Position numbers and translations under genes: made by a program
Notes under the pieces: model-generated
Told to the model about the DNA's origin: nothing
What the model saw: the letters and a program-made list of their open reading frames with translations, nothing else
Databases searched by the model: none
Source of the DNA: a bacterium
Lineage (GTDB): Bacteria; Patescibacteriota; Patescibacteriia; Patescibacteriales; GWC2-42-12
Assembly (NCBI GenBank): GCA_030650415.1
Contig: JAUSEG010000011.1
Coordinates: 1,687 to 65,686, forward strand
DNA: 64,000 bases
Direction: 5' to 3'
Shown here: positions 30,057 to 39,276 of the stretch, piece by piece
Numbering within the stretch: position 1 is the first letter of the stretch
How the letters are laid out: every line of letters starts with the position of its first letter

Positions 30057-31100
30057 TTAATATTCTTCCGTCGCCGGCGATAAAACTTTGGCTAAGAGCT
30101 CCGGATCCGAGAGCAAGATACCGGTGCCTCGAACCACGCAGGTTAGAGGATCTTCGGCCACTCTGACCGGAATTTTCGTGGCTTGGGCGATTTCTTTATC
30201 CAGTCCGCGAAGCAAGGCGCCGCCGCCGGTTAAGACTATGCCGTGCTCGTAAATATCGGAAACCAATTCCGGCGGCGTGGTCTCTAAAGTTATTTTAATG
30301 TTTTCTATAATCTGACGAATAATCCTCTGCATGGCTTCCCTGACCTGACTGTCGGTAATAATCACTTCCTTAGGCAGGCCGTTAATTAAATCTCGGCCTC
30401 TTAAGGGCATTTCTATCGACTCTTTTAAGGGCGCGGCCGAACCGATTTTAATTTTAATATTTTCCGCCACCTGCTCGCCGATTAAAATATTAAATTCTTC
30501 GCGCACATACTGAATAATGTCATTATCCAGGGCGTTACCGGCCAACCGTAAAGTTTTCCAGGTAACGACTCCGCCCAAAGAAATAACTGCTATCTCGGTC
30601 GTACCGCCTCCTATATCAACTACCATAGTGGCTTGGGGTCCGACAACATCTAAACGCGTACCGATAGCCGCGGCCATGGATTGCTCAATTAAAAATACCT
30701 CGCGCGCTCCGGCTGATTTAGCCGCGTCTTCAACCGCTTTCTTTTCCACTTCGGTGATATCCAGCGGGATGCCGATAATTACCCGGGGCCTCGGCACTAA
30801 AGTAAAATATTCGCTATGCACTTTATCAATGAAATATTTAAGCATTTTTTCCGTCACTTCAAAATCGGAAATTACGCCGTCGACTAAGGGCTTAATGGCT
30901 TGAATATGAGGCGGAGTTTTCCCTAACATCTTCTTCGCTTCATGGCCCACGCATAAAATTTCATCGGTGCGCAAATTAACCGCTACCACCGATGGTTCGT
31001 TAATAACAATCCCCTTTTCCGGGGTATAAACTAGGGTATTGGTCGTTCCCAAATCTATGCCCAAGTCTTTAGAAAATCTGCCAAAAAATTTATTTAACAT
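30057..31100 (-). CDS. mreB: Rod shape-determining actin homologue MreB.
   Basis: GIDLGTTNTLVY and DIGGGTTEIAV phosphate motifs. The start was moved to MLNKFF. Confidence 0.9.
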   Translation of the reverse strand: MLNKFFGRFSKDLGIDLGTTNTLVYTPEKGIVINEPSVVAVNLRTDEILCVGHEAKKMLGKTPPHIQAIKPLVDGVISDFEVTEKMLKYFIDKVHSEYFTLVPRPRVIIGIPLDITEVEKKAVEDAAKSAGAREVFLIEQSMAAAIGTRLDVVGPQATMVVDIGGGTTEIAVISLGGVVTWKTLRLAGNALDNDIIQYVREEFNILIGEQVAENIKIKIGSAAPLKESIEMPLRGRDLINGLPKEVIITDSQVREAMQRIIRQIIENIKITLETTPPELVSDIYEHGIVLTGGGALLRGLDKEIAQATKIPVRVAEDPLTCVVRGTGILLSDPELLAKVLSPATEEY

Positions 31101-31112
31101 TATATTTATTAT

Positions 31113-31259
31113 GTCATTGCGGGCTATTATTCTTTCTGTCATTCTGGAGGGAGCGCCAGCGACCGATAGAATCTCGCTGTAAACACTCTAACCATGAGAT
31201 GCTATCGCTTCACTTCGTTTCGCTCCAGCATGACAAGAAATTAGTCGCTCGCAATGACA
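31113..31259. repeat. Compound nested-palindrome repeat (family A inside tgtcattgcggg/ctcgcaatgaca).
   Basis: Read directly. Confidence 0.85.
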
Positions 31260-31368
31260 ATAAAAGCATTCTTTATTCTTTCAGTTTACTCTAAAATCAC
31301 CCAATCTGTCAAAAAAACGGCTGCTCCTTAAAAGCAACCGTTTTTCTGATATTTAAGCAGATTTTAAA

Positions 31369-32277
31369 TTATTTTTTCCATTTCTCCCAGGTTACCAATA
31401 ACGGCGGAGCGACGAAGATCGAAGAATATGTACCGAAAAAAATACCAACCGCTAAGGCCAGGGCAAAAGTCCTGATACTTGAACCGCCGAAAATAATAAT
31501 TGAAGTTAAAACCAGAAGCGTCGTCATACTAGTATTAACCGAACGCACCAAGGTTTGATTTAAACTCATATTAACCGTGCCTTCAAAGTCCAAATCGCTC
31601 TTCGGTAAATTTTCTCGAATCCGGTCAAACACCACGATGCTATCATGAACTGAATAACCGATAACGGTTAAAACCGCGGCCACAAAAGCTATGTTTATTT
31701 CCACATCGTAAAAATGACCTAGAATGGCGAACACGCCCATAGTAATCACCGCGTCATGAAACATGGCGATAATCGCCGCTAAACCATATTTCCAGGAAGC
31801 CACCGGGCGCGAAACTTTCCTAAAGGCGTAAGTTATATAGAGAGACATGGCGATTAGCGCAAAAAATAAAGCCCAAAGCGATTTAGCTTTTAATTCGGCG
31901 CCAATAGAAGGTCCGACTGATTCAAAGCGCAACTCTTCAATTGCATTATTTTTATCTGCAATCTTCGCCGCATCGGTTAATTTAGTTAAAATCGCCTGGT
32001 GAGTTTCTTCCGCCGTTTCCTGAAATCTTAAAAGCATGTCAATCTCGCCTACCGGTTGAATAATTAAACTACCTAATTTAAGGTCGGCTAGATCGGCTTC
32101 GGTTTGACTGACGGTCGGCCTTTGGCCAGCGAATCTTACTTCCAGTAAACTGCCGCCGGTAAAGTCAATACCGTATTTAAAACCCCAGACTAAGAGCGCG
32201 GCTAAAAAAACCACGAACAAAGCGCCGGAAATCGACAGCCAAATTTTTCTTTTTTGAATTATTTTGAAGTTAGTCAT
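31369..32277 (-). CDS. secF: Protein-export membrane protein SecF.
   Basis: The ~300 aa protein has a six-TM C-terminal region and an FDVEINIAFVAAVLTVIGYSVHDSIVVFDRIRE motif. Confidence 0.85.
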   Translation of the reverse strand: MTNFKIIQKRKIWLSISGALFVVFLAALLVWGFKYGIDFTGGSLLEVRFAGQRPTVSQTEADLADLKLGSLIIQPVGEIDMLLRFQETAEETHQAILTKLTDAAKIADKNNAIEELRFESVGPSIGAELKAKSLWALFFALIAMSLYITYAFRKVSRPVASWKYGLAAIIAMFHDAVITMGVFAILGHFYDVEINIAFVAAVLTVIGYSVHDSIVVFDRIRENLPKSDLDFEGTVNMSLNQTLVRSVNTSMTTLLVLTSIIIFGGSSIRTFALALAVGIFFGTYSSIFVAPPLLVTWEKWKK

Positions 32278-32280
32278 AAT

Positions 32281-32500
32281 TTTCTCTTTGTCATTCCCGC
32301 GCAGGCGGGAATCCAGGGGTTAGCAGTAAAAATATACTGCTTTCTCTAAACCCTACACAATATAAAAATTTTAAATTAGCGCACGCTCAGTAAAAATATT
32401 CCTACTTCTCCCTCCTGGATTCCCGACAGCCTTCGGCTTCGGGAATGACAGACTAAAAAAAGACCGCTTCGCTTCATTCCTCGCAATGACAAATTATCTT
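32281..32500. repeat. Composite family B element (tgtcattcccgcgcaggcgggaatccaggggttagcagtaaaaat...ctccctcctggattcccg...gggaatgaca...ctcgcaatgaca).
   Basis: Closely related to 42093-42320. Confidence 0.8.
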
Positions 32501-32528
32501 AATTTGCAATTTATAAAACTTTAAAAAA

Positions 32529-32837
32529 TTATTCAACAGGTAACTCTTTTACATTGTGATTTGGGCAATTGAAACGGATTGTGTCAACTATCATAACCTT
32601 TCCGTCCTCAATACCACCAACATCTGGTAAGTTGCCCAACTCCTGTTCTATATCTTTTTGCGTCAAATCACCATTTTTCAATTTTTCTAAAAGTCGATTT
32701 TTCGCCTGTTCTGCCACGCTCAACATTGCTGAAAGGCTAAGTTTTAATGCCATTGGAGGGAGTTTCTCTAAGATGCTATCTATGATGGGTGTGACTGAAG
32801 CAACCTGCTCTCCTCCTTCGTGTCCCATATTTTTCAT
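32529..32837 (-). CDS. Hypothetical 102 aa protein between secD and secF.
   Basis: An ORF only; it is not YajC-like (no TM segment). Confidence 0.25.
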   Translation of the reverse strand: MKNMGHEGGEQVASVTPIIDSILEKLPPMALKLSLSAMLSVAEQAKNRLLEKLKNGDLTQKDIEQELGNLPDVGGIEDGKVMIVDTIRFNCPNHNVKELPVE

Positions 32838-32861
32838 ATGATTTTTGATTAAAATAAATTA

Positions 32862-35051
32862 TTATTTATTCTCCCTCGCCTTCACCGACGTAATTAGGCC
32901 ATGGCGTTTTTCCAACCAGGCCGGCGGAATCAGACTCAAGAAATTTCTGGTGATAAAGATCGCGGTAAACATGGAAATTATAACGCCCAAGCCTAAAGTT
33001 ACCGCGAACCCCTTAACCGCGCTGGTAGTGAACATGATTAAAATTAGACAAATTATCAGAGTATTAAAATTACTATCCCTGATCGACGGCCAGGCGCGTT
33101 TAAAGGCTTCGTTTAAGGCCACGGACAATGGCTTGCCGGCTAAAATTTCTTCTCGTAGTCTCGCAAAAATTAAAATATTAGCGTCCACAGCCATGCCGAC
33201 CGAGACGATCGCTCCGGCTAGTCCGGCCAAAGTAAGAGTTACCGGCGCCAAACCGCCGATGAAATACAAAATAATATAGCTCAAGAATGCCAATAAGATA
33301 AACCAACTATTAACCGTAATACCGATGATTAAGAAAATGCCGACTAAGACCAGCGCTGCCATGGAAAAACCGATTTTAAATAAAGTAAATACCAATAAGC
33401 TATAAACTACCAGAGCCAAAACCGCCATTAATCCCGGTAATCTATAGAAGACAATCATGAATAAAGCGATTATTACAAAAGCGATTAAACCGGCGCGCAG
33501 GCTATCATCAACAGATTTTTGCCCTAGGCTTGGGCCAACGGTTTGCTGATTAACTAAGTTAATCGGTACGGGCAAAGCGCCGGCGTTTAGCCGTTGCGCG
33601 AGAAGCTTAGCTTCGGTAATGTTAAATTTTCCGGAAATTACCGCTTTACCGCCGCTAATTTTTTCATTAACATTCGGTATGCTGATGGCGTAGCCGTCTA
33701 AATAAATCGCCACCGGTTTATTAATATTGCGAGCCGTTATGGTTTCAAAAAATTTCGCGCCTTCATCGTCAAAAGCCAGAGAGACTTCGGGGGAACCATC
33801 TTGAGGATTAAACTCCACCGATGAGGTCTTTAAATTTCGACCGGTCAATTCAGTATTCTTCCATTCGCTTTGCACGCCGATAATATCCTGCTCGATTTTA
33901 GTCTTTATGAAAATATGGCTTAAATTAAATTCTTGAATTTTTCTTTCTTCCTGTTTATAAATTAAGTGCCAGCCGAATTCGGTTTCAACCGGGCCGGAAA
34001 TCGTACCCACCGCCTGTTTAAAGACTTCGTCTTCAAACGGCTTGACCATAGCGCCCAAACTGAACCAACCCAACTCGCCGCCCGAGTCTCGCGCGCCAGG
34101 TTCGGTGGAATTCTGCTTAATTAAATCTTTAAAATTTGCCGGCGTAGCCTCTAGTTTTAATTTATTGACTTTTGCCAAAGCTTCTTCTTTAGTAAAACCG
34201 CTTTCGCAACCGGTATTATCTTTAAAACAAATCAGAAGATGCGAAGCCTTTACTTCTTTTTCCGGCTGATTATTGAAAGGATTAATTTTTTCTCTCTTGC
34301 CTTCGACTTTAATAATTTCAAAACCGCCGTTAATACGCCCTAAATCGGCGCTCGATTTTCCTACGGCAATATTTTTCGCTAAATTATATATTCCCGGGTT
34401 ATCTTTTTCCGTAATCCAACCCAGACTTCCGCCGTTAGCTTTAGTTTTTTCATCTTCGCTATAAGCCGCAGCCAGGGCCTTAAAATCTCCGCCGGATATA
34501 ACTTTGCCTAAAACCTCGGTAGCGCGCGCTTCAGCCGCCTTATTATAATCATTCAACTCTTTAGTTTCCGCGTCAGTCATTTTCCTAATTTCTTTATTTT
34601 CTTCCTTAAATTCCAAGAGCGGAGTTTCGCCGATATTTTTAATCGCCTGCTTAATATCTTTAATACCGGCCAGTTCAACGATTATCCGGTAATCGCCGCC
34701 GGAAGTTCGGTTAATTTGCACATTAGGCTCGCTGACGCCAAAAATGTTTATTCTTCTTTCAATTACATCGCGAACGCCTTCAACCGCATTACCTTTATCG
34801 GCGGTTGCGATAGCGCTAACATCAGCCTGATAAGTTAATTGCGTACCGCCCTGAAGATCAAGCCCCAACCTAAAAGGCATTTCTTTAACTTTAGGGAAAG
34901 GCGCTTTAAATTTATCGACCGCTCGATTGTAATAAGATCCGAAATCAACCAGCGACGTCGCTAAAACCAGTAAAATAATACCAACAAAGGTCCACCAAAT
35001 CTTTCCACGGCTGGTGGGTTTTAATAATTTCTGTAAAATGTTGTCAGACAT
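32862..35051 (-). CDS. secD: Protein-export membrane protein SecD with two parvulin-type PPIase domains inserted in the periplasmic head domain.
   Basis: SecD N-terminus LGLDLQGGTQLTY; a C-terminal six-TM region; internal ...ANGGSLGWI... and ASHLLI...SGGELGWFSLGAMVKPFEDEVFKQAVGTISGPVETEFGWHLIYK parvulin signatures. Confidence 0.85.
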   Translation of the reverse strand: MSDNILQKLLKPTSRGKIWWTFVGIILLVLATSLVDFGSYYNRAVDKFKAPFPKVKEMPFRLGLDLQGGTQLTYQADVSAIATADKGNAVEGVRDVIERRINIFGVSEPNVQINRTSGGDYRIIVELAGIKDIKQAIKNIGETPLLEFKEENKEIRKMTDAETKELNDYNKAAEARATEVLGKVISGGDFKALAAAYSEDEKTKANGGSLGWITEKDNPGIYNLAKNIAVGKSSADLGRINGGFEIIKVEGKREKINPFNNQPEKEVKASHLLICFKDNTGCESGFTKEEALAKVNKLKLEATPANFKDLIKQNSTEPGARDSGGELGWFSLGAMVKPFEDEVFKQAVGTISGPVETEFGWHLIYKQEERKIQEFNLSHIFIKTKIEQDIIGVQSEWKNTELTGRNLKTSSVEFNPQDGSPEVSLAFDDEGAKFFETITARNINKPVAIYLDGYAISIPNVNEKISGGKAVISGKFNITEAKLLAQRLNAGALPVPINLVNQQTVGPSLGQKSVDDSLRAGLIAFVIIALFMIVFYRLPGLMAVLALVVYSLLVFTLFKIGFSMAALVLVGIFLIIGITVNSWFILLAFLSYIILYFIGGLAPVTLTLAGLAGAIVSVGMAVDANILIFARLREEILAGKPLSVALNEAFKRAWPSIRDSNFNTLIICLILIMFTTSAVKGFAVTLGLGVIISMFTAIFITRNFLSLIPPAWLEKRHGLITSVKARENK

Positions 35052-35226
35052 AAATTAATAACACCCCATCAGGGTGTAATATTTAAATGAAGTTGTAACT
35101 CTTTCTAATATTTTAAACTACTTTTCAGATAAAATCAAGTTCACCCCGTGAAATAATTTTGCTTATGCAAAATTAGCACCAAGCGCTATTTCATGGGGTA
35201 AAAATAAATGGCTAAGATTAAAAGAA

Positions 35227-35721
35227 TTATTTACCATTTTCCAGATAAACCGCGGTGTTATTCTCTAGCGCGGCCAAGCATTGGGGCAATCTCCGTTTTA
35301 ATTTATCATTCAATAGGGGCAACGCGTCATCAATTTTAATAAATCTATATTCAACAATTTCTTGGCCGTCCACTTTTATGTTTTTCATCTCGCTAGCGCT
35401 TAATTTCCCGCCAAAAAAGACAAACTGTAAATTTTCATTTTTTTCTTCTCTGGCTGGCGCATAATCAACACCCAAAAACTTTACATCAGCCAAACTAAGG
35501 CCAGTTTCCTCTTTAACTTCTCTAAGACAGGCGATTTTCGGCGATTCGTCTTTTTCAACCACTCCGCCGGGCAATGTCCAATGATCTTTATAACTCGCTT
35601 TAACAAATAAAATCTCACCGGTGTCGTTCATAATTATCGCGCCGGCGCCCATTCTTTTCTTCGGCAGATTTTTATAATAATCATTAGCCATATAATTTTC
35701 TCTTCGTCTCAAGCCACTCAT
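35227..35721 (-). CDS. Nudix hydrolase.
   Basis: Nudix box GGVVEKDESPKIACLREVKEETGL. Confidence 0.8.
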   Translation of the reverse strand: MSGLRRRENYMANDYYKNLPKKRMGAGAIIMNDTGEILFVKASYKDHWTLPGGVVEKDESPKIACLREVKEETGLSLADVKFLGVDYAPAREEKNENLQFVFFGGKLSASEMKNIKVDGQEIVEYRFIKIDDALPLLNDKLKRRLPQCLAALENNTAVYLENGK

Positions 35722-36184
35722 TGAATGCCTTATAAAATTTTCCGTTTATTTTAAGATCGGCGATAATCGCTTGCGGTGTTGAGATATGTTTAATATAGCT
35801 TAAACTTTCTTCCGGTGATAGAAATTTTATGCATTTAACTGCTATTTCAGTATCCGACTTTCCATCCCATTTATTAATCTTAAATGTACCATCCAATTTT
35901 TTATCCCAGGTAGCGTCAACGATTTTCCATTCTCCGTCAACGTTAATTTCAATATAAGTGTGAGAGGATTCGTCATCATGCGACACGCCTTGAATTTCCT
36001 TTGGCAAATTGAGATCGCTCCATCTGAATGTGCATAAGCGATATATTACGTCATATCCTCCCCGCTTTAATATCTTAAATAACTTTTCTGCTTTTCCAGT
36101 GCAACACTCATCCGGCTCTTCTAAAGAAAGAGGGATTCTGTACGGAATATCTCTAACTTTTTCGAATTCTTTAATGATACTCAT
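35684..36184 (-). CDS. Transglutaminase-like (Cys-His-Asp) domain protein.
   Basis: Cys in CTGKAEKLFKIL, His in SHTYIEINVDGEWKIVDATWD and an Asp downstream. Confidence 0.45.
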   Translation of the reverse strand: MSIIKEFEKVRDIPYRIPLSLEEPDECCTGKAEKLFKILKRGGYDVIYRLCTFRWSDLNLPKEIQGVSHDDESSHTYIEINVDGEWKIVDATWDKKLDGTFKINKWDGKSDTEIAVKCIKFLSPEESLSYIKHISTPQAIIADLKINGKFYKAFNEWLETKRKLYG

Positions 36185-36194
36185 ATTTCTACCG

Positions 36195-36238
36195 ATCCCT
36201 CCTGGATTCCCGCCTTCGCGGGAATGACAATAAAAGTA
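36195..36238. repeat. Single family B palindromic module (ctcctggattcccgccttcgcgggaatgaca).
   Basis: Read directly. Confidence 0.7.
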
Positions 36239-36252
36239 GTTATTTTCTTACT

Positions 36253-39200
36253 TTATGCCCCATGGCACTTCTTATATTTTTTGCCAGACCCGCACGGGCA
36301 GGGATCATTCCGCCCAATTTTCTGGCCTTCGGCATCTTTGGCTTTTTCATGAACTAAATCTACCGGTTGATTTTTTTTATTTTCACTACTCTTAAAAGCG
36401 GAAAATGATTCTGTGCTCTTATCCATAGTCTTGGCCGGGGCGATGTAATTCTGCGGCCGCGTCTTCAATGTTGGCATGGCGAAATTACCGAAGTCCGCCA
36501 CTTTAAAAATGGAATAAGCCACTTGCTTTTGAATTAAATTATTTAATTCATTATATAAAATATAAGCTTCTTTTTTGTATTCTATGAGCGGATCTCTCTG
36601 GCCATAGCCGCGGAGCCCGATGCCGGCGCGCATATGATCCATGGCTTCCAAGTGCTCCATCCACAGCATGTCAAATGACCTTATAAGAACCGCTTTTTCA
36701 ACTTGGCGCCAATCGATTCCGGCCTCTCCGGCCAGTTTAATAATTTTTTCATAGTTGGTTTTTACCAAAGCCATGAGGTGGTCGCAAATTTTCGTCCTAA
36801 CTCTTACTTTTTCCAGCTTATCGCCGTCGCCGGCCAATCCCGTAAGCTCATCTTTTAATTTCGCTTCCACCGGCAAAATGGTTGACATAACCTGATAAAT
36901 TTCTTTAATATTCCAATCCGCGCTTGCATCGGCGGCCGTATGAAAAATTACCGCCTGCTCGATTTCGTTTTCAATCATTTCTAAAATTATTTCTGTCATC
37001 CTGGAGGGAGCGGAGCGACCGATAGGATCTCCCTGTTTTGCCTCTGAACTATGGGATTCTATCGCCTTCGGCTCCAGAATGACATTACCACTTTCCGCCA
37101 ACTCCAATATCTCTCGCCTCTTCCGATAGGTTGTCTCGCGATGCTTATTTATTACATCATCATATTCAACCAAGTGTTTTCTAGTATCAAAATTATTGCC
37201 TTCAACTTTTTTCTGCGCCGATTCGATGGAACGAGAAACCATGCCATTCTCTATTGGCAGGTCTTCCGGCACTCTTAAGGTGGTCATTAAGTTCTTCATC
37301 CGGTCGCCGCCAAAAATTCTCATCAAATCATCTTCCATGGAAACATAGAATTGGCTTGATCCCGGATCGCCCTGGCGGCCGGCGCGGCCTCGAAGCTGAT
37401 TATCAATGCGCCTGGCCTCGTGCCTTTCCGTGCCAATAATATGCAAACCGCCAGAGGCCAGCACTTTTTTATATTCTTCTTGCCAGATTTTATATTCCGG
37501 GTTTTCCTCTTTTCCGTCTTCCATCAATTTGCTTGGCGGTACTCCGCCGAGCATAATATCCACACCTCTTCCGGCCATATTGGTGGCGATAGTCACGGCG
37601 CCCAAACGCCCGGCCTGAGAAATAATTTTGGCTTCCTTTTCATGGTGTTTGGCATTTAAAACCTGCGGTATAATCCCTTCTCGTTCGAGCATCTCGCCCA
37701 AGACTTCATTTCTTTCAATGGAGATGGTGCCGACTAAGATCGGCTGGCCGGTAGCGTGCCGGCGCTTCACTTCTTCAATCACGGCTTTAAACTTTCCATT
37801 TTCGGTCCGATAAATTAAATCATTAAGATCTTTTCTAACCATCGTCCGATTAGTCGGTATCACCACGGTTTCCAGTTTATAAATTTTGGAAAATTCCTCG
37901 GCTTCGGTTATGGCCGTGCCGGTCATGCCCGAAAGTTTCTTATACATTCTGAAATAATTTTGAAAAGTCACGGTGGCTAAGGTCTGTGATTCGCGTTGAA
38001 CTTTAACTTTTTCCTTAGCTTCAATCGCCTGGTGCAAACCCTCGCTATAGCGCCGGCCATGCATTAAGCGGCCGGTAAATTCATCAACAATAATTACTTC
38101 GTTATCTTTCACCACGTAGTCCCGATCGCGCTTAAATAAAACTCGCGCTTTTAGAGCTTGCTCAATATGGTGCACTTCGGAAATTCCGCCCGAGGTATAA
38201 ATATTATCCACGCCCATTAATTTTTCCATTTTAGCGATACCGGCTTCGGATAAAGTGGCGGCGCGCATTTTTTCATCAACATTATAATCGCCCTGCCCTG
38301 AGTCATCCGAAGGGTCATTTTCGGTTAAACGTTCAACCAAGTCGGAAAATTTAAAATATTTATCCGTCGATTCTTCGGCTGGAGAACTGATTATAAGCGG
38401 CGTTCTGGCTTCATCAATTAAAATTGAATCGACTTCATCGACGATAGCGTAATATAAATCCCTTTGCGCCATTGAATTTAAATCCGGCACCATGTTATCC
38501 CTTAAATAATCAAAGCCGAATTCATTATTCGTGCCATAAAGAATATCGCAAGCATAGGCCTCTTTACGTGGCACTTCAACTAATTTGCCTTCGTTTTGGT
38601 CATTGAAAATTTGATCATTGGGATTTGTTTGAAAATTGTCTGGCTTCGCCAGATCTGGCGTAGCCAGAGAAATTGGAAATTGAAAATTTTTTCCCGAATT
38701 ATAAATATAGGCTTTTTCATGTGTTATACATCCCACGCTCAATCCAAGAAAACTGTAAATCTTCCCCATCCATTCGGCGTCGCGCTTGGCCAGGTAATCG
38801 TTAACCGTAATTACATGCACGCCCTTTTTAGGCAGAGCGTTTAAATAAGCGGGCAAAGTAGCCACTAAAGTTTTACCTTCGCCGGTTCTCATTTCCGAAA
38901 TTTGCCCGCGATGCAGCGCCAGGCCTCCGAGCAACTGCGCGTCATAATGCCTCTGGCCTAGGGTTCGCTTGGCCGCTTCTCTAACCACGGCGAAAGCTTC
39001 CGGCAGAATTTCTTCCAGCCTTTTTTCTATGTCATCCTGGAGCGAAGCGTCAGCGGAGCGATAGGATCTCATTTTTTCATTACCCGCGCTGAGCAAAACC
39101 GAAGCGTCAGTCTCCACCTCCAATCTTTTTCTAAACTCGGCCGTCATATTCCGCAACTCATCATCGCTCATCACTTCAAACTTTTTTTCCAAAGCATTAA

Positions 39201-39276
39201 TCTCCGCCACAATCGGCCTTAAGCCTTTTATGATCTTTTCATTCGGATCACCAAAAATTTTATCGATTAAACTCAT
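36253..39276 (-). CDS. secA: Preprotein translocase ATPase SecA (1007 aa) with three in-frame repeat-derived insertions.
   Basis: DEAD-like motor motifs, the C-terminal zinc site [14 protein letters not shown], and the N-terminus [14 protein letters not shown]. Confidence 0.9.
36994..37084. repeat. Family A palindromic element inserted in frame in secA. It encodes [31 protein letters not shown].
   Basis: tgtcatcctggagggagcggagcgaccgataggatctcc...gattctatcgcc...ctccagaatgaca; translation checked by hand. Confidence 0.85.
38601..38690. repeat. 'ttgaaaatt + ggcttcgccagatctggcgtagc' module inserted in frame in secA. It encodes [20 protein letters not shown]....
   Basis: The same 'ggcttcgccagatctcgcgtagcgatgac' module occurs at 40830, 42240 and 45250 (intergenic). 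Translation checked by hand. Confidence 0.75.
39030..39072. repeat. Half family A element inserted in frame near the secA N-terminus. It encodes [16 protein letters not shown].
   Basis: atgtcatcctggagcgaagcgtcagcggagcgataggatctcat; translation checked by hand. Confidence 0.75.

Follow-up and report, generated by a model that had tools for sequence, protein, structure and literature searches.

A patescibacterial SecD with two parvulin domains inserted at the base-head hinge of P1

The P1 head of SecDF binds the unfolded chain as it emerges and swings about the hinge between P1 base and P1 head, driven by the flow of protons through the transmembrane (TM) domain (Tsukazaki 2011, Furukawa 2017; cited in PMC9643414 and PMC9987972). 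Recent work on systems such as holo-translocon (HTL)-SurA, PpiD-YfgM-SecDF and the Mycoplasma dome asks how extracytoplasmic chaperones receive nascent secretory proteins from the Sec channel. PpiD makes contact with SecD and works together with SecDF at a late stage of translocation (PMC9643414). SurA binds the holo-translocon, and AlphaFold models put its P1 and P2 domains on the P1 head of SecDF (PMC9987972). In Mycoplasma pneumoniae, a PrsA-like lipoprotein dome sits on the Sec translocon, SecDF included (10.1101/2025.04.25.650208), and Mpn444 crosslinks to SecD (10.1101/2024.09.05.611430). Elsewhere, the partnership between foldase and SecDF is achieved in trans, with PrsA, SurA, PpiD or the Mycoplasma dome. 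Here we describe the secD gene at 32862..35051 (-) of a 64,000-nucleotide stretch (hereafter the window) of a patescibacterial contig, JAUSEG010000011.1, whose product carries two parvulin-type peptidyl-prolyl isomerase (PPIase) domains within its own P1 region.

The gene is a single unbroken frame of 729 aa plus a stop, and GC content and skew run continuously across it, without any break. Against the NCBIfam model TIGR01129 (secD) the protein scored 337.8 bits (cutoff 244.4), and all four Pfam SecD models exceeded their gathering thresholds, namely Sec_GG (residues 59-78), SecD_1st (residues 91-152, E 4e-16), SecDF_P1_head (residues 398-495, E 9e-28) and SecD_SecF_C. Two further stretches were matched by Rotamase_3 and Rotamase (E 9e-37 and 4e-31, respectively). 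The parts of the gene are listed below in the order of the protein chain, with confidences of the AlphaFold2 (AF2) model given as predicted local distance difference test (pLDDT) values.

32862..35051, minus strand: secD, SecD with an inserted parvulin module (open reading frame, ORF; TIGR01129)
34908..35012, minus strand: TM1 (residues 14-48; hydropathy; AF2 helices 14-36 and 38-48, pLDDT 88-95)
34596..34877, minus strand: P1 base, N-terminal half (residues 59-152; Sec_GG motif LGLDLQGG; hinge strand LLEFKEE)
34290..34574, minus strand: body of parvulin 1, alpha1-alpha3, beta2, alpha4, beta3, beta4 (residues 160-254; AF2 pLDDT 95-98)
33939..34259, minus strand: parvulin 2, a complete canonical parvulin (residues 265-371; key residues H271, E317, M335, F339, T357, F359 and H362; Cys pair C275/C282)
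33903..33935, minus strand: strand QEFNLSHIFIK, which would be the displaced beta1 of parvulin 1 (residues 373-383; direct coupling analysis, DCA)
33534..33896, minus strand: P1 head, with the strand that leads back to the base (residues 386-506; Pfam; AF2 pLDDT 90-97)
33372..33533, minus strand: TM2-TM3 (residues 507-560; alignment to Thermus thermophilus (Tth) SecDF up to its residue 315; AF2 helix 507-560)
33249..33371, minus strand: 41 additional hydrophobic residues between TM3 and TM4, predicted as a hairpin (residues 561-601; AF2 helices 564-577 and 584-598)
32892..33248, minus strand: TM4-TM6 (residues 602-720; GMAVDANIL motif with D623)

By every measure that we could apply, the product is SecD. 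Its topology, with TM1, a large periplasmic P1 (base and head) and five further TM helices, is colinear with those of Tth SecDF and Escherichia coli SecD, and the AF2 secondary structure agrees with it, the additions being the parvulin module and the TM3-TM4 hairpin. TM4-TM6 align with residues 305-425 of Tth SecDF and 501-611 of E. coli SecD; here GMAVDANIL is matched to Tth GAAVDGNVL, with both D623 and N625 invariant in 105 sequences. The counterpart of D623 is Tth D340, reportedly the conserved TM4 aspartate of the proton path (Tsukazaki 2011). The SecD hallmarks retained are the Sec_GG motif, D623 and an adjoining secF with its HDS and VRSVNTS motifs. Among homologues, the N-terminus MSDNILQK is kept, and L146, E147 and F148 of the P1-base strand are invariant.

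The described SecD and SecDF proteins (Tth, 3AQP and 5YHF; 5XAN; E. coli SecD, 5MG3) share with this one TM1, the P1 base, the P1 head, TM2-6, Sec_GG, the TM4 Asp and the adjoining secF. The differences are the TM3-TM4 hairpin and a double-parvulin module of ~233 residues, which replaces the ~25-residue base-to-head connector of Tth SecDF. In the alignment to that protein (3AQP), residues 56-151 correspond to 29-118, 385-557 to 144-315 and 587-708 to 305-425, and the module is flanked by the P1-base strand LEFKEE (Tth LEFRIV) on one side and by the P1 head on the other. The initial annotation had put the insert within the periplasmic head; the alignment moves it to the base-to-head junction of P1. 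Likewise, LGLDLQGG, read at that stage as the start of the head, is not head sequence; it is the Sec_GG motif that opens P1. Nor is the C-terminal membrane bundle a normal one, as had been supposed, since it consists of five canonical helices plus the 41-residue hydrophobic insert, for which AF2 predicts two extra helices.

The presence of two parvulin-like domains in SecD, in turn, was borne out, each of them being independently significant within residues ~160-372. Parvulin 1 alone (~166-250) matched Pfam Rotamase with E 1.7e-12 (48.6 bits, cutoff ~22), although over profile positions 11-96 only, the first strand being missing. Parvulin 2 alone (261-367) matched the full Rotamase_3 profile with E 1e-25 (90.9 bits, cutoff ~22). 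Similarity between the two bodies is limited to a local stretch of 26 residues centred on GGxLGW, which leaves a recent internal duplication of the two parvulins unsupported.

Two families of chaperones come closest to the module. SurA (E. coli, 1M5Y) also has two consecutive parvulins; the first parvulin of the module resembles the inactive SurA P1 and the second is of the active type, and residues 167-374 align with SurA 169-368 (E 1e-19). PrsA (Bacillus, Staphylococcus, Listeria) is likewise an extracytoplasmic, membrane-tethered and non-phospho-specific parvulin, also present as an inserted domain, and its PPIase domains match parvulin 2 with E 1e-14 and a target-normalised TM-score (TMt) of 0.83. 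The 729-aa protein is neither SurA nor PrsA, because the N/NC chaperone domains are absent and the scores fall far under the cutoffs: 80.9 bits against 394 for the SurA model NF008038, which matched only in the P1-P2 region (SurA 193-387), and 70-85 bits against 343-361 for the PrsA models PRK03002, PRK03095 and PRK02998, which matched in the parvulin part only. In contrast to SurA, the protein lacks the N- and C-terminal chaperone core, parvulin 1 appears permuted and parvulin 2 nested, and the module is covalently part of SecD. In contrast to PrsA, it has no lipobox and no NC dimerisation/chaperone domain, and in the window's clade Glu replaces Asp at the position of Pin1 C113.

Mapping of parvulin 2 onto human Pin1 (BLASTP, 38% identity over 110 columns; the Pin1 sequence used matches PDB 1PIN in length and numbering) paired H59 with H271, C113 with E317, M130 with M335, F134 with F339, T152 with T357, S154 with F359 and H157 with H362. 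Conservation of these residues could be observed directly. H271 is found in 268 and H362 in 272 of 276 homologues, and F359, F339 and T/S357 are conserved among the same sequences; at position 317 the window's clade has Glu, SecDF fusions mostly have Asp, and mixed representatives have either. The set as a whole (H271, H362, D/E317, F359, F339, T/S357) is kept in ~97% of the 276 sequences, which span 36-100% identity. Parvulin 2 is of the non-phospho-specific Par10/PrsA type, because the basic phosphate-binding loop of Pin1 is absent. It appears to keep a complete Par10/PrsA-type active site, and PPIase activity is predicted for it.

Parvulin 1 is different in this respect. Its best match in the PDB is the P1 domain of SurA (E 8e-11), with 'gfEiikv' aligned to 'gfHilkv', so that Glu245 occupies the beta4 His position. 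Parvulin 1 accordingly reads as a catalytically degenerate domain (E245 for one His) of the SurA-P1 kind. Within the window's clade, E245 is present in 114 of 119 sequences and H379 in 110 of 119, and both positions vary elsewhere.

While the active-site set of parvulin 2 has been held, the equivalent positions of parvulin 1 drift freely, and this contrast is the pattern expected of purifying selection on catalysis. It speaks against the main rival explanation, namely that the module is a non-catalytic holdase or grip, with prolyl isomerisation irrelevant or lacking, and that it adds substrate-binding surface to the P1 head in the way that SurA P1 or the parvulin domain of PpiD may. We regard this explanation as unlikely but worth keeping in view, given the degeneracy of parvulin 1, whose closest solved relative is the inactive SurA P1; the Glu at 317, a residue not characterised in parvulins; the finding that PPIase-dead PrsA still supports secretion (PMC12445088); and the doubts raised about the role of the PpiD parvulin domain (PMC9643414).

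A pair of cysteines, C275 and C282, lies in the beta1-alpha1 loop of parvulin 2 (HLLICFxxxxGCESG; 34206..34229, minus strand). Every one of the 119 sequences of the window's clade has both; among 39 mixed representatives each Cys occurs in 9, and the Peregrinibacteria group has neither. The pattern suggests a putative extracytoplasmic disulfide.

The arrangement of the two parvulins turned out to be less simple than the tandem of the initial annotation. Along the chain, LEFKEE is followed by body 1 (160-254, with beta4 GFEIIKV), the strand KEVKASHLLICF (265-276) and body 2 (288-371, with beta4 FGWHLIY); the strand FNLSHIFIK (374-383) comes next, and then the P1 head. SecDs with a single parvulin (P0133, P0139, P0141, P0142, P0182 and P0217; loci L028-L032 and L035) show the order IGETPxLEFKE, alpha1, SEDPGSKxxGGxLG, FGYHII (beta4, with its His), 12-16 residues, xxASHILxKT and W..TGL (head). 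In none of those compared does a His-bearing strand precede alpha1. A parvulin-less SecD of the candidate phyla radiation (CPR), P0186, which reads …LEFKEQNPLPE and then ETDSIDFENWQPWK… across the junction, equals P0139 minus exactly the module. Because P0186, without the module, is also without the ASHIL strand, the strand belongs to the module and not to SecD. The inserted parvulin of the single-parvulin SecDs is therefore, as the order of its elements indicates, a circular permutation in which beta1 is placed after beta4.

For the double-parvulin inserts, the partners of the strands were sought by mean-field DCA on 275 sequences (effective number, Neff, 182), a run that superseded an earlier one with 129 sequences (Neff 61), which was too shallow. 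The last strand (373-381) was coupled with beta4 of body 1 through Q373-K252, E374-R253, N376-G251, H379-E245, I380-I246 and F381-G243, N376-G251 being the 8th strongest pair overall (score 2.17; H379-E245, 1.67). The strand 265-275 was coupled with beta4 of body 2 through E266-R370, K268-E368, S270-Q367, H271-H362 and L272-L363, and also with the core of body 2 (L272-I311, A269-M335/F339). Both pairings are antiparallel ladders, and in both domains the positions of the His dyad couple directly (H271-H362 and E245-H379). The last strand and beta4 of parvulin 1 gave 9/132 cells above the 99th percentile (3 of them above the 99.9th), and the strand 265-275 and beta4 of parvulin 2 gave 9/156, compared with 0/144 and 1/143 for the alternative pairings, in which each strand goes with the preceding body.

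We could thus reject two permuted units in plain tandem, which have 0-1 strong DCA cells against 9 for the nested pairings; the co-invariance of H271/H362 and the joint drift of 245/379 oppose them as well. Nor was LEFKEE supported as beta1 of parvulin 1, since LEFKE and beta4 of body 1 share one strong cell (1/108 above the 99th percentile) and SecDs without a parvulin contain this strand too. AF2 predicts strands of matching length at 243-254, 265-276, 360-371 and 373-383. Parvulin 2 needs a canonical beta1, because Foldseek aligns it over 105-111 columns with the PPIase domains of Pin1, PrsA and SurA-P2 (TMt 0.77-0.84, root-mean-square deviation ~2.5 Å). Its strand order is beta1-alpha1-3-beta2-alpha4-beta3-beta4 by Foldseek and DCA, whereas parvulin 1 would have its beta1 supplied from 373-383. 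Coevolution, rather than coordinates, leads us to infer that parvulin 1 is circularly permuted and that its beta4-beta1 connection accommodates parvulin 2 as a nested domain of canonical order. Full-text literature searches found no description of a permuted or nested parvulin topology, and this one may be a new structural variant of the parvulin fold.

With 105 sequences (36-78% identity), AF2 returned a model with pLDDT 90.2 and a predicted template-modelling score (pTM) of 0.62; with 58 close homologues (at least 59% identity) the values were 72.6 and 0.36. In the 105-sequence run, pLDDT was 94-98 for the parvulins, 79-97 for the P1 base and head, 85-94 for the canonical TMs and 57-65 for the inserted hairpin (helices 564-577 and 584-598). 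The best Foldseek matches of the model were SecDF structures (3AQP, TM-score 0.50; 5XAN; 5YHF), followed by SurA and then by the PPIase domains of Pin1 and PrsA.

Taken together, we consider it likely that the protein is a functional SecD of the proton-driven SecDF motor, with a parvulin module built into the extracytoplasmic P1 at the base-head hinge and acting as a PrsA/SurA-like foldase. The coupling of such a foldase to SecDF, proposed in the initial annotation, remains the best-supported reading, with the parvulins fused into SecD and no SurA-N or PrsA-NC domain accompanying them. Both connections of the module leave the hinge, one after LEFKEE and the other back to the head via the strand 373-383 and the helix 387-391, and the N-terminus of alpha1 of parvulin 1 couples in the DCA with the post-strand linker 387-393; the module should therefore sit beside the P1 head. 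The head would capture the unfolded chain leaving SecYEG and swing with the proton flow, and the module would ride alongside. Parvulin 1, degenerate and SurA-P1-like, would bind and hold the chain, whose prolyl bonds parvulin 2 would isomerise during release. Export and the first folding steps would then be coupled in cis, both the PPIase activity and the coupling to translocation being predictions.

An insertion exactly at the hinge that governs head movement, together with those couplings between alpha1 of parvulin 1 and the linker 387-393, could also fit a role unrelated to client folding, such as docking SecDF to an envelope component (YidC, signal peptidase, or machinery of the cell wall or surface layer) or controlling how the P1 head swings. 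The extra TM hairpin in SecDs like the window's, which suggests altered partner contacts, would agree with this. The neighbouring genes (secA, a Nudix gene, secF and mreB), however, indicate no partner, and pure docking would leave the conservation of the catalytic pocket unexplained; we find such a role improbable.

Several points weigh against the foldase proposal itself. In vivo, Bacillus subtilis PrsA can do without its PPIase activity (PMC12445088), and doubt has been cast on how much the parvulin domain of PpiD matters (PMC9643414); conserved catalytic residues are therefore no proof of selection for catalysis. Missing from the module are the NC and N-terminal chaperone domains to which PrsA and SurA owe most of their chaperone activity, and its catalytic acid appears to be Glu, as opposed to Cys or Asp in characterised parvulins. 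Its position relative to the head is uncertain at a pTM of 0.62, and the nested topology is deduced from coevolution among ~182 effective sequences in which two clades dominate. Finally, the function has been read, for this protein and for all members alike, from sequences and models.

The known partnerships differ from this one mainly in how foldase and translocon are held together. PpiD-YfgM on SecYEG (E. coli) likewise provides a parvulin-containing chaperone anchored in the inner membrane, but there the chaperone, PpiD, is not part of SecD and brings a TM anchor and large chaperone domains of its own, and the importance of its parvulin has been doubted (PMC9643414), whereas the window's parvulin 2 keeps its catalytic residues. 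The M. pneumoniae dome (Mdp/Mpn444-Mpn436-Mpn489) also brings PrsA-like parvulin foldases together with SecYEG-SecDF, in a physical and almost obligate association and in a wall-less, reduced bacterium; there, the association is non-covalent and involves large separate lipoproteins, whereas here a compact module is fused into SecD. A natural fusion of parvulins into the moving P1 domain provides independent support for the partnership of foldase and SecDF. It also fixes the point at which the foldase is attached to SecDF and puts both on one compact chain suited to structural and biochemical work. A SecD-parvulin fusion is not categorically new; its interest for translocation specialists lies in the evidence of a natural fusion and in the unusual nested, permuted fold.

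The architecture is conserved well beyond this genome. All 120 closest 90%-identity clusters (58-100% identity) have the Rotamase and SecD Pfam domains in the same colinear arrangement, and those with a name belong to Falkowbacteria, Parcubacteria or Patescibacteria. When 1.84 billion 50%-identity representatives were searched exhaustively with phmmer, 3585 proteins were obtained at E<=1e-30, the best 150 of which were annotated with hidden Markov models built from the SecD-parvulin family. Among these 150, ~75 are plain SecD or SecDF with no parvulin, ~55 have one parvulin detected (some with room for a second, divergent one) and ~18 have two; SecDF fusions, with or without a parvulin, account for ~19. 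The architecture had been called uncommon at the outset, which holds outside Patescibacteria only; a parvulin is present in about half of these best 150 SecD representatives.

When the SecDF fusion P0136 was used as the query, 118/120 of the proteins returned had a Rotamase domain, the named ones being from Peregrinibacteria, Gracilibacteria and Patescibacteria. Two SecDF fusions that are 56-57% identical to P0136, P0294 and P0298 (962 and 978 aa), have no Rotamase domain. This suggests a secondary loss of the module within the P0136 clade. Single-parvulin versions occur in Buchananbacteria and Komeilibacteria, and SecDF-fused versions in Peregrinibacteria and Gracilibacteria. In a GTDB scan with the alignment of the insert, every full-length match came from a record of the Patescibacteria type (Falkow-, Uhr-, Magasanik-, Buchanan-, Komeili- and Peribacteria, and the Parcubacteria group); the other matches were standalone SurA/PpiD-type genes of other phyla, covered in the parvulin part only.

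The identical protein at NCBI (P0001) is entered as 'MAG: peptidylprolyl isomerase [bacterium]', and public homologues have been auto-named 'peptidylprolyl isomerase' or 'SecD/SecF'. A record named only for the isomerase could suggest a chimera, in which an assembly error or a frameshift had joined a secD gene to a separate parvulin gene. The parvulins are internal, though, with P1 segments of SecD on both flanks and in one frame, and hundreds of independent assemblies carry the same colinear architecture, which rules out a frameshift or chimera; we give an artefact next to no credence. That the gene is real and not a frameshifted fusion follows from the same architecture in independent assemblies (the 120 clusters, the 118/120 fusions and GTDB genomes from at least seven named lineages of Patescibacteria). 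No description of a SecD-parvulin fusion was found in full-text literature searches.

A wider reading, quite possible but tentative, is that much of Patescibacteria has absorbed a foldase into SecDF as a permuted parvulin, with a second, intact parvulin nested in it in many lineages, and that the swing of the P1 head hands the chain to this on-board isomerase, replacing standalone periplasmic parvulin chaperones in genomes as reduced as these. If true, this would be a cis version of the SurA, PpiD and PrsA partnerships with SecDF, and natural 'Rosetta-stone' evidence for parvulin chaperones acting at the SecDF P1 head. The fusion also informs how the ultra-small Patescibacteria economise on envelope proteostasis.

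A few GTDB records that carry the Patescibacteria-type SecD-parvulin are oddly labelled (L005, L008, L012, L016, L018, L020-L024 and L029). The labels are 'uncultured Gammaproteobacteria bacterium', 'Candidatus Binatia' (L005, 65% GC) or 'Lysobacteraceae' (L029, 30% GC). The SecF encoded beside these loci is 41-53% identical to the window's SecF, as in bona fide CPR loci, and the labels probably reflect mis-binning or placeholder taxonomy.

The hairpin between TM3 and TM4 has its own distribution. Residues 561-601 have no aligned counterpart in Tth SecDF or E. coli SecD, and inserts of 41-51 aa at this site (mean hydropathy 1.8) were found in 197/387 collected homologues. All 120 Peregrinibacteria-type SecDF fusions carry one, as do some CPR SecDs that have no parvulin (P0151, P0163), and the insert is missing in about half of the close Falkowbacteria-type relatives.

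Genes for export and cell shape (secA, Nudix, secD, secF and mreB) are grouped around secD on one strand, over 30057..39276 (-). The neighbours are as follows.

36253..39276, minus strand: secA
35684..36184, minus strand: 166-aa ORF without a Pfam match, overlapping the Nudix gene by 38 nt
35227..35721, minus strand: Nudix hydrolase gene
32529..32837, minus strand: 102-aa ORF in the spacer between secD and secF
31369..32277, minus strand: secF, the partner subunit, 302 aa (Pfam SecD_SecF_C 4e-61; Sec_GG)
30057..31142, minus strand: mreB

No yajC was seen among the genes from secA to mreB, and no further parvulin ORF within the 64-kb window, the one result that bears on the initial annotation's idea of an organism with few standalone periplasmic chaperones. 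In the same window, no Rfam family reached its gathering score, which means no tRNA, rRNA or riboswitch match by this search; a promoter scan gave nothing above shuffled expectation. The 102-aa ORF had no Pfam match and no tblastn match in 80 related loci, and could be an orphan gene or else inserted DNA that codes for nothing. It lies in a secD-secF spacer of 584 nt (32278..32861), whereas secF of the closest related locus begins at or within the end of secD; secF was downstream of secD in 32/32 related loci checked.

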